Origin: Thelocarpon superellum
Lineage: Eukaryota
NCBI GenBank assembly: GCA_026025795.1
Contig: JAPEUG010000047.1
Coordinates: 1-64,000 of the forward strand
DNA length: 64,000 nucleotides
Direction: 5' to 3'
Shown here: positions 2,926 to 6,302 of the stretch, piece by piece
How positions within the stretch are numbered: the first letter of the stretch is position 1
Layout: each line of letters begins with the position of its first letter
Translations under genes and position numbers: made by a program
The notes under the pieces: generated by a model
What the model was told of the DNA's origin: nothing
Database searches by the model: none
What the model saw: the letters and a program-made list of their open reading frames with translations, nothing else

Positions 2926-5857
2926 ATGCCGTCGAAACAAGCCACACTGGGGTACGTACAGCCTGCGCAGAGAAGCCTAACGTGCGTCTGATCTCGACTC
3001 GGTCTCTGGTGGGGCCCTGATACCTCGGGTGCTGACCGGCCTTCTCTAGCAAATTCTTTGGCCAACCCAATGGCGCCAGTCATGCTCCACGGCAGTCCAA
3101 GCTCGCCTTTTCGACTAAGAGTCCCTCCACCGAGACCAATGGCGCTGGTGCGGTGACAGAGTCGGCTACCACCGACGCACGTGAGGCGGACACTGCCATG
3201 ACCGATGTCCAGCAAGAAGAGGGGGCACATGAGGATGCCGCTCAATCCGCCGAGCCTGCTCCGCAGCCGCAAGCCGTGAAGACCGAGTCGGACGTTGACG
3301 GATCAGCTACCGAGAGCAAGTCGAAGCGCTCTCGATCAACCGCGGCTGCGCCAGCTCCGGTGGCGACCGACGAATCGGACGATGCCGATGAGCAGCCGCT
3401 CACCAAACGGCGAAGACGTGACGGTGCCAGCAGCAATCAGGTCGCCAAGGCGGACTCACTCGGCGAGGCCAGTCCTGGACCGACCATCCAGACGGAATTG
3501 GCGGCGTCAACAAATGATGAGACCCAGGAGGGTGCCGGTCGTTGGGACGTAGAGCACCTCAAGGCCGAAGACGCCGAAACCGAGACTGATGAGGCGTTGG
3601 AGTCGGACGAAGATGAGAAGCCAGAGCTTGCGGCCAAGGCACGAGAAAAGGTCCAGACGACGCTCAAGGACAGCGCGAACGACCCTTATCCCGACTGGAA
3701 CCCCGGTGCACCCGTGCCGTACGCAGCGTTATGCACCACCTTTTCCCTCATCGAGATGACGACGAAACGTCTCATCATCATGGCGCACTGCTCGCTCTTC
3801 CTACGCCAGGTGCTCCGGCTCACGCCAGCTGACCTGCTCCCCACGGTCCAGCTGATGGTCAACAAGCTGGCCGCGGACTACGCCGGGATCGAGTTGGGCA
3901 TCGGCGAATCGCTGATCATGAAGGCCATTGGCGAGACGACCGGCCGGAGTCTGGCGACGATCAAAGCCGACCAGAATGAGATCGGTGACCTCGGCTTGGT
4001 CGCGGCCAAGAGTCGGTCGAACCAGCCCACCATGTTCAAGCCGAAGCCGCTCACCGTGCGAGGGGTACACGAGGGCTTGATGGCCATCGCCACCGTGTCC
4101 GGAAACGGGGCGCAGAGTCGAAAGGTGGCCGGCATCAAGAAGCTGCTCGCCGCCGCTGACGCTCAGTTGGCGGGCAAGGGGAAGGGGGTCGACATCACCG
4201 AGAACAAGGGTGGTCCCAGCGAGGCGAAATTCATCATCCGCTTCTTGGAGGGGAAACTACGACTGGGGCTCGCGGAAAAGACGGTTTTGATCGCCCTGGC
4301 CCAAGCGATGGTGGCACACGACGTCGGCGGGGATGGCAACGGCAAAGTCCCCAGCACGGAGCAATTGGCCCAAGGCGAAGCCACGCTCAAACGCGTCTAC
4401 AGGTCGGTGACGGGCGCGCGAGGACGATGGCGGGGCTAACGCGCTCCCTAGTGAACTCCCCAACTACGAAGTCATCATCCCCGCCATGGTCGAGCATGGG
4501 ATCGTCCATCTCGGGGACCACTGCAAGCTGCAGCCGGGCGTGCCGCTGAAACCCATGCTGGCCAACCCGACCAAGTCCATCACCGAGGTGCTGAACCGAT
4601 TCGAGAATAAGCACTTCACCTGCGAGTACAAGTATGACGGTGAGCGGGCGCAGATCCACTTCGTCTCACCCGAGTCCCCTCTCCAGTACCCGTGCACGCT
4701 CCCGTCAGCCAAGGGGCAGAAGGGGCTGTCGGCCATCTTCTCGCGCAACTCGGAAGACCTCTCGAAGAAGTACCCAGACGTGCTCTCGAAGCTTCGCACG
4801 TGGGTCAAGGAAGACACCCGGAGCTTCGTGCTCGATTGTGAGACAGTGGCGTGGGACGTGGAGACGAAGAAGGTGCTCCCATTTCAGCAGCTCATGACGC
4901 GGAAGAAGAAGGACGTCAAGATCGAAGATGTCAAAGTCAAGGTCTGCGTCTTTGCCTTTGACATCCTCTTTGTGAATGGCGAGGTGGGTTCACATTTCAT
5001 TGCCTCAAGGTGTCCGCCGGAGGGACTAACTTTTCCAGTCGGTGGTCCGGAAGTCATTCCGAGAGCGACGGAAGCTGCTCTACGATGCCTTCGAGGAGGT
5101 CGAAGGCGAATTTGCCTTTGCCAAACAGATGAACACCAGCGAGCTCGAGGAGATCCAAACCTTTTTGGAGGAGAGCGTCAAGGCGTCGTGCGAAGGGCTG
5201 ATGGTGAAGATGCTGGACGGCGAGGAGAGCGGGTACGAGCCCAGCAAGCGAAGTCGGAATTGGTTGAAGGTGAGAGGGTCCGATTGAGTCGACGGGCACC
5301 GGGCTTACTCACTCGTTGGGCAGATCAAAAAGGACTACCTCGCCGGACTCGGAGACTCACTGGATCTCGTGGTGCTAGGCGCATACTACGGCAAGGGCAA
5401 GCGGACGTCGGTGTACGGGGCGTTCCTGCTAGCGTGCTACAACTCCAGCACGCAGGAGTACGAGACGGTGTGCAACATTGGCACGGGCTTCTCCGAGGCG
5501 GTGCTGGAAGAGCTCCACACGGCCTTGTCGGAGCATGTCATCGACCGACCGAAGCCCTTCTACGCCCACTCCAACGTGGCCAAAGACCAGCCCGATGTCT
5601 GGTTCGAGGCCAAGTTCGTGTGGGAGGTCAAGACGGCGGATCTGACGCTGAGCCCACGATACAGGGCCGCGGCCGACGCAGGCATTGACGGGACCGGGCG
5701 TGGAGTCAGTCTGCGCTTCCCGCGCTTCATGCAGCGACGCGATGACAAGAAGGCCGACGAAGCAACGAGCAGCCGGATGGTGGCGGAGATGTATCGGAAG
5801 CAAGAGAGCGTGTCCAAGGTGACGGGACCTGCCGTGGACGACGATTTTGAATACTAG
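2926..5857 (+). CDS. CDC9: ATP-dependent DNA ligase I; introns 2952-3049 (alternative donor 2982), 4403-4451, 4984-5038, 5270-5323
   Basis: N-terminal PIP box QATLG|KFF, adenylation motif EYKYDGERAQIH, EGLMVK, WLK|IKKDY and SLRFPRF. The GT-AG introns have branch points and join the listed ORF pieces in frame. Confidence 0.95.
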
Positions 5858-6302
5858 AGGCATGTCACATCGGCTGGCGTTTCCGGAGTGACGGAGAACG
5901 GGTTCCTTCTTCCTTGATGGCATCCATGTCATCAGACGCCGAATGAAAGCAGACCCCCGCTCGACGAGGCTATTAGATCCTGGGAAGTGAATGGAGCATT
6001 CCAGATCAAGAGGGTGGGGAGGAGGGGATGCGCAGACGAGCTTCTGTCCGTGGTTACCTGCAGAGGGCTAGTAAAGTCTGATTGGCGACTGTAGTGGTCC
6101 CTCTGGCGTCCGCCCTGCGCGTCGGTTATGCAGGTCCAAGGATGATTCGCTTCCCCCAGGCTAAAATCACCTGACTGGCGTGGCAGCTCATTCGGCAGCT
6201 CGCTCGGCAGAGTATCTTCCATTGTTTCTAGTCACAGTATGACTACCACGGTCGCTGATTCGACAGCGTCTTCCGTCATCTCCGGAGTCCTCCAGATCGT
6301 CA

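Follow-up and report, generated by a model that had tools for sequence, protein, structure and literature searches.

Conserved tandem splice donors in the DNA ligase I gene of filamentous ascomycetes and a PIP box that either splice choice would keep

DNA ligase I carries a PCNA-interacting protein (PIP) box in its N-terminal region. In yeast, the Cdc9 peptide that was co-crystallised with PCNA (AGKKPKQATLARFFTSMKNKPT, residues 32-53) contains the motif KQATLARFF (PMC1865074), and an N-terminal PIP box has also been described for human Lig1 (PMC9767926). The present study is focused on the gene for the replicative, ATP-dependent DNA ligase I (cdc9/LIG1) in a stretch of 64,000 nucleotides from the lichen fungus Thelocarpon superellum (contig JAPEUG010000047.1, positions 1 to 64,000), which is referred to here as the window. 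The shorter of the two predicted products of this gene has the same motif at the same place as Cdc9, reading KQATLGKFF. However, whereas a single motif is described for Cdc9 and human LIG1, in the window the first half of the motif is duplicated together with its splice donor, and the second half, common to both copies, stands on the other side of intron 1.

Several described systems resemble this arrangement in part. Alternative start codons in yeast CDC9 give rise to one form for the nucleus and another for the mitochondria (PMC1865074), so that there, likewise, one ligase gene produces more than one N-terminal proteoform; nevertheless, the choice of start codon alters targeting, whereas the choice of splice donor in the window would alter the PIP box and ten residues. 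SKI7/HBS1 is a rare example of alternative splicing that large parts of the fungal kingdom have kept (PMC3597508), but it generates two functionally distinct proteins, whereas the ligase isoforms proposed here would differ by ten residues and carry the same motif. In animals, in-frame tandem splice sites separated by 3-9 nucleotides (nt) have been reported as selected against in coding sequence (PMC2279118). Those sites are also nearby in-frame donors with one acceptor, but the ligase donors are 30 nt apart, are both conserved, and each has its own copy of the half-motif. A literature search, with the supplementary tables of fungal splicing surveys lying outside it, found no report of alternative donors in the fungal ligase I gene. 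The arrangement is new as a combination of known kinds, namely an alternative 5' splice site and a PIP box.

The two donors of intron 1

Splicing of intron 1 at the first donor (donor 1) generates a protein that starts with MPSKQATLG/KFFG, where the slash marks the exon junction, and splicing at the second one (donor 2) generates MPSKQATLGYVQPAQRSLT/KFFG. The two exon ends are in the same phase and are joined to one acceptor (Table 1), which is the layout of an alternative 5' splice site, and donor 2 is the sole further in-phase GT from donor 1 to the stop codon TGA. In the long form, the 30-nt segment between the donors supplies the third base of a Gly codon, the codons for Y V Q P A Q R S L and the bases AC of a split Thr codon; the bases of donor 1 are then read as the third base of Gly, the Tyr codon and the first two bases of the Val codon. 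After K-F-F, exon 2 encodes a disordered acidic and basic linker, followed by the DNA_ligase_A_N domain.

Both products fit Q-x-x-L-x-x-F-F: the short form has QATLGKFF and the long one QRSLTKFF, both in agreement with the PIP consensus Q-x-x-[LIM]-x-x-[FY]-[FY]. The original prediction for this locus had claimed that the donors GTACGT and GTGCGT share phase and acceptor, that each isoform matches the PIP consensus and that a retained intron would stop translation at a TGA. Every one of these elements was found at the predicted coordinates, both motifs can be read directly from the sequence and the in-frame stop is in its place.

The best explanation, to which a probability of roughly 0.78 is given, is a conserved pair of donors that compete with each other, either of which would yield a product with a complete PIP box. 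According to this explanation, intron 1 of cdc9/LIG1 would split the N-terminal PCNA-binding PIP box, with x-F-F coming from exon 2 and Q-x-x-L-x standing before the donor, and a 30-nt unit consisting of the Q-x-x-L-x half and its donor would be present twice in tandem in filamentous ascomycetes. The likeness of the second unit to the first suggests that the unit may have arisen by tandem duplication. The spliceosome would have a choice between two donors, each of ordinary strength, with one common acceptor: donor 1 would give a short ligase with a near-invariant QATLG/KFF, and donor 2 a ligase with ten more residues, in which the second motif, Q-x-[TSN]-[LIV]-x/KFF, is more variable, each product bearing a complete canonical PIP box. 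Purifying selection would keep both donors and the frame between them, both mRNAs being made and translated. Because both donors are under selection, both isoforms very probably exist, and both junctions would be expected in RNA. The gene probably makes two ligase forms, both of which would bind the sliding clamp.

Table 1. Features of intron 1 and of the exons of the ligase gene in the window
Feature	Position	Strand	Basis or remark
Start codon ATG	2926-2928	+	sequence read
Exon 1, short form, 26 nt (MPSKQATL and GG of the split Gly codon)	2926..2951	+	with exon 2 reproduces P0001
Module 1, QATL	2938-2949	+	sequence read
Donor 1, GTACGT	2952-2957	+	exon end at 2951, two bases into a codon
30-nt segment, intron via donor 1 and coding via donor 2	2952..2981	+	sequence and orthologue comparison
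Module 2, QRSL	2968-2979	+	sequence read
Donor 2, GTGCGT	2982-2987	+	exon ends at 2981, same phase as donor 1
In-frame TGA, met if the intron is retained	2989-2991	+	sequence read
Branch-site-like CTGAC, 12 nt before the acceptor AG	3032-3036	+	sequence read
Acceptor AG, common to both donors	3048-3049	+	sequence read and exon-joining script
Exon 2 (C AAA TTC TTT GGC...)	3050..4402	+	begins with the last base of the split codon
K-F-F, second half of the PIP box, common to both forms	3051-3059	+	sequence read
Exon 3	4452-4983	+	domain search and exon-joining script
Exon 4	5039-5269	+	domain search and exon-joining script
Exon 5	5324-5859	+	domain search and exon-joining script
Exons 3-5 together	4452..5859	+	encode the adenylation and OB domains

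The CTGAC near the acceptor matches CTRAY, the fungal branch-site consensus. Another branch-site-like sequence, CTAAC, is located at 2977-2981, directly before donor 2, where it overlaps the Leu and Thr codons at the end of module 2. With a distance of 68 nt to the acceptor, this CTAAC is probably not the branch site in use, CTGAC being better placed.

Conservation and constraint of the tandem donors

Orthologous loci were collected by scanning metagenome contigs with an alignment of the DNA-binding domain (from the window and ten relatives), a query that holds no information on exon 1. The scan gave 80 loci, 76-86% identical in this domain, and the module pattern CAR-N6-[Leu/Ile/Val/Met codon]-NN-G[TC] was then searched upstream of it. 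Since 14 of the 80 loci end before exon 1, 66 are informative, and 63 of them contain an in-frame ATG followed by Q-x-x-L with donor 1 and, exactly 30 nt further on, by Q-x-x-[LIV] with donor 2. Donor 1 occurs in each of the 66 informative loci and donor 2 in 63, as expected for an alternative 5' splice site that is conserved among orthologues. The 63 tandem loci represent 54 distinct sequences, or 55 with that of the window. Among these 55, the hexamer of donor 1 is GTATGT in 36, GTACGT in 18 and GTTAGT in one; donor 2 is more varied, with GTGCGT (12), GTGCAT (8), GTGCGG (6), GTGCGC (4), GTGTGT (4), GTGGGT (4), GTGCAC (3) and others.

Judged by their best match among named proteins, the loci are close to lichen-forming taxa, Eurotiales, Onygenales, Leotiomycetes, Dothideomycetes and Xylariales-like Sordariomycetes. 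The named species with a long form span Eurotiomycetes, Leotiomycetes, Dothideomycetes and Sordariomycetes, the class having been looked up for example species. The tandem-donor arrangement is a property of most of the filamentous ascomycetes examined, and not of this genome alone. The doubled Q..L module was found in none of 149 cluster representatives of ligase I from all forms of life, which is a weak negative as many of these have no proper N-terminus.

The three exceptions among the informative loci (L072, its identical copy L073, and L075) retain module 1 together with donor 1, but GT is absent at +30. They are 86% identical to a protein of Aureobasidium sp. EXF-3400 (P0299), which is itself annotated in the short form. 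In these loci the segment has decayed to GYVDTSKSIM and GYVETLQTILI, and a PIP box can be formed only via donor 1. The loss of donor 2 in the Aureobasidium-like loci is recent, because Aureobasidium pullulans keeps the long option.

The segment between the donors behaves as translated sequence. In the 24 nt after the donor-1 hexamer, mean entropies at codon positions 1, 2 and 3 are 0.99, 0.69 and 1.58. The corresponding values are 0.45, 0.17 and 1.53 in module 1 of exon 1, and they are flat (1.92, 1.92 and 1.90) in the 30 nt after the donor-2 hexamer. The reading frame is open in all 54 distinct segments, compared with 11 and 42 of the 54 for the other two frames and 37-40 of the 54 for intron controls. 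There is synonymous variation at the Gln, Thr and Leu codons, and the length changes by whole codons, being 30 nt or the 27 nt implied by nine-residue inserts in protein models. Besides, the Gln and the Leu or Ile of module 2 are in exact PIP register relative to donor 2. The register, the open frame and the codon periodicity are all to be expected if a translated donor-2 product is under selection.

Donor 1, on the other hand, bears signs of constraint as nucleotides. Its G at +1, which occupies a third codon position in the long form, is present in 66 of 66 loci while the codon that carries it varies (GGG; CGG in L042; AAG in L032, L044, L045 and L056). In L032 the Tyr codon has been replaced by one for Leu, yet donor 1 still reads GTTAGT, and the four-fold sites beside donor 1 vary freely (entropy 1.7-1.9). 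Donor 1 is more conserved than ordinary donors, which is expected if it serves both as a donor and as two codons of the long form. With regard to donor 2, G at +5 is found in 74% and T at +6 in 65% of cases. Among 59 downstream donors of the same genes, +5G occurs in 48 and +6T in 37, the introns having a median length of 52 nt and a minimum of 46 nt. By its sequence, donor 2 looks like an ordinary donor of these genes. Taken as patterns of variation among orthologues, these data indicate that donor 1 is constrained as nucleotides and that both donors are under selection.

The suggestion that two donors 30 nt apart, each after Q-x-x-L, might be conserved in related genes was borne out across leotiomyceta, where in-phase donors about 30 nt apart each follow Q-x-x-[LIV]. 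The notion of a split PIP box with duplicated first halves is supported both by this conservation and by the translated-sequence signature of the segment between the donors. It had also been argued that a chance placement of the second Q..L was unlikely. By a rough estimate, a random four-codon context would read Q-x-x-[LIM] about 0.6% of the time. With the two modules exactly 30 nt apart in 63 of 66 orthologous loci, the argument holds, and chance placement is excluded because the tandem donors are conserved and the segment between them shows the signature of translated sequence.

Public gene models and competing explanations

Public protein models contain both forms. Three sets were compared: the 120 best protein relatives of the ligase, and later additions of 29 and 110 proteins. 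The first set includes 69 short models (QATLG/KFF), 32 long models with exactly ten extra residues, one long model with nine (P0040) and 18 others, which are mis-started, fused or truncated. The 29 further proteins, obtained by a search for long N-termini, comprise 21 long and 4 short models, 3 that read through the intron past donor 2 and 1 odd one, while the 110, which are rich in Dothideomycetes, comprise 37 short, 13 long (four of them with a nine-residue insert) and 60 other models. The long models read QATLG/YVxxxQxx[LI]x/[KR]FF, and the Gly-Tyr-Val after module 1 in every one of them corresponds to donor 1 (GG/GTAYGT) read as codons. Short and long models are both annotated within Aspergillus, Pseudogymnoascus and Monilinia. 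In Aureobasidium pullulans, two proteins of 889 and 879 residues (P0300 and P0302) are 98% identical, and the difference in length is exactly the ten-residue block.

Related to these models, several side observations can be made. Nine-residue inserts (e.g. QAKLGYVVNQQTLGKFF) are found in P0040, P0316, P0322, P0326 and P0374, from Lineolata, Septoria, Cercospora and Cladosporium; as judged from the protein models, the donors would therefore be 27 nt apart, one codon less. The 26-nt first exon is often overlooked. In many models, translation begins at an ATG within intron 1 or continues into the intron past donor 2 (P0007, P0025, P0031, P0035, P0039 and P0080), and the same is seen in P0135, P0147, P0149, P0307, P0312 (Zymoseptoria tritici IPO323) and P0313. 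The model from Podosphaera aphanis (P0148) reads QATLGIVKDSQTTLGKDVTK; its donor-1 codons give Ile rather than Tyr, and module 2 is not followed by F-F, which points either to a wrong acceptor in the model or to a real change in powdery mildews.

Several points weigh against the explanation by two used and selected donors. At each of the two sites, the search pattern required CAR, a codon for Leu, Ile, Val or Met, and G[TC], and invariance at these positions within the 63 loci arises partly by construction, although the count of 63 in 66 does not. The sequences are related, so the counts are not independent events, and the 59 downstream donors used for comparison were inferred by a home-made script from 42 loci and may contain errors. 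An indirect hint at the mRNA favours the short form only. It comes from 74 proteins that originate solely from gene callers which apparently do not splice, as judged from models that run through the intron, begin within it or have GTG as start codon. Five of them carry the short junction and none the long one. Of the remaining models, 5 continue into the intron past donor 2, 20 begin within the intron or where exon 2 begins, and 44 begin further downstream. A search for long N-termini in such sources, in which 41 candidates were scored, returned spliced long forms only as NCBI gene models. Provided that splicing is indeed not part of those gene calls, the five short junctions stem from spliced templates and the short mRNA would therefore be the common one; the long mRNA may be rare, or may be lost in assemblies.

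These data bear on the reading in which both donors are used but the long form is tolerated splicing noise, kept harmless by its PIP box and having no distinct function or regulation. The intron-free templates (five short junctions against none) are in line with it, as are the near-equivalence of the two products, both PIP-bearing ligases, and the loss of donor 2 by one lineage without apparent harm. However, one base change would be enough to destroy a donor that is merely tolerated, and yet the GT at +30 has been kept in 63 of 66 loci from at least four classes, the spacing of the donors is exact (30 or 27 nt) and donor 2 is as consensus-like as constitutive donors. Splicing noise is the less probable reading. 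It would be very unlikely, on the other hand, that donor 2 alone is used, with GTAYGT as mere Tyr-Val codons of one long protein and the short models as mispredictions. The public databases do contain 33, 21 and 13 long models in the three protein sets, and in the window the resulting intron of 68 nt is closer to the 52-nt median of the other introns. Nevertheless, the third base of the codon before donor 1 is always G while the residue varies among Gly, Arg and Lys, and the locus with Leu in place of Tyr (L032) has retained the GT..GT shape of a donor. Moreover, the Aureobasidium-like loci without donor 2 can form a PIP box only through donor 1, the five proteins from non-splicing sources carry the short junction, and QATLG is nearly invariant though it would lie outside any PIP box in a protein that is always long.

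The converse reading is that donor 1 alone is used and that the 30 nt belong to the intron, their conservation having a non-coding cause (a second U1 site, for example, or a splicing enhancer or RNA structure). It has in its favour that donor 1 is universal (66/66) and that all five junctions from non-splicing sources are short. This reading is scarcely probable in view of the segment itself, which has the features of coding sequence: it varies with the period of the codons, synonymously at those for Q, T and L, its frame is open in 54 of 54 sequences and changes in length by whole codons only (30 or 27 nt), and its Q and L are in exact PIP register to donor 2. In addition, the segment decays once donor 2 has been lost, and RNAalifold, run on 49 aligned segments, found 0 conserved pairs. 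With this last result, pairing between the donors or a conserved hairpin was dropped as a candidate. A stwintron, in which an internal intron interrupts a splice signal of the outer intron and is removed first (PMC6616335), was also considered, together with recursive splicing. Neither fits the locus: the 30-nt stretch between the donors has no acceptor of its own, and the shortest intron inferred in these genes is 46 nt.

Gene context and biological meaning

The assignment of the gene to DNA ligase I is based on the domain order of the encoded protein, DNA_ligase_A_N, DNA_ligase_A_M and DNA_ligase_A_C (E-values 2.3e-46, 2.5e-38 and 7.2e-21, and 5.7e-24, respectively; all above the Pfam cut-offs), and on the names of its closest relatives, which are called DNA ligase I or DNA ligase 1, Cdc9 or Cdc17 in many ascomycetes. 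The sequence belongs to a metagenome-assembled genome of Thelocarpon superellum, a species placed by the NCBI taxonomy in Pezizomycotina, leotiomyceta incertae sedis. A public protein of that genome (P0001, 891 residues, "hypothetical protein") matches exon 2 with 100% identity and uses donor 1; joining the five exons of Table 1 by script, with exon 1 in its short form, yields this protein. The three downstream introns measure 49, 55 and 54 nt, and their donors are GTCGGT, GTGGGT and GTGAGA. In two of the orthologous metagenome loci (L044 and L045) the frame of exon 2 is unbroken for 859 codons, so that all downstream introns seem to be absent there, and intron 1 with both donors is retained. 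The original prediction had also named GTGCGT as the donor of both MRPL17 introns; a simple motif scan for an L17-like frame gave no match.

The ligase gene is flanked by genes for asparaginyl-tRNA synthetase upstream and SAICAR synthase downstream. The closest relative, from Thelocarpon impressellum (P0005, 1339 residues), is a model in which asparaginyl-tRNA synthetase is fused to the ligase and the PIP-box exon is skipped. Both genes adjoin in the window too (508-2319 and 2926-5859), and the fusion is probably a mis-merged gene model. Before the start codon of the window gene, the frame is open for 120 codons (2566-2925, + strand), rich in Arg and without any ATG. Many orthologues (e.g. P0114, P0124, P0088 and P0010) have an upstream in-frame ATG and a presequence-like extension, in which they resemble yeast CDC9 and its mitochondrial form, and a script applied to the orthologous metagenome loci likewise flagged an upstream in-frame ATG in many of them. 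In the window gene, the presequence form may be absent, or it may depend on a non-AUG start or on an upstream exon.

Conserved alternative splicing that changes the protein is rare in fungi, and the event described here concerns a gene essential for replication, exactly at the motif by which the ligase is tethered to the sliding clamp. It also allows the inconsistent public models of this protein (short, long, read-through and intron-start, even within one species) to be reconciled. A further possibility, which at present is doubtful, is that of a regulated splice switch, conserved in filamentous ascomycetes for presumably hundreds of millions of years, that exchanges the first half of the PIP box. 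If true, the switch would change positions 2, 3 and 5 of the PIP box as well as its N-terminal flank, and it would set how tightly the ligase holds the clamp, or which clamp it chooses, for example with a difference between S phase and repair, or between vegetative stages and sexual or dormant ones. The gene offers a clean test case of whether such isoforms are regulated or merely buffered. With one half of the motif duplicated together with its donor and the other half in common, the arrangement would be a compact way to keep a short linear motif under either splice choice.

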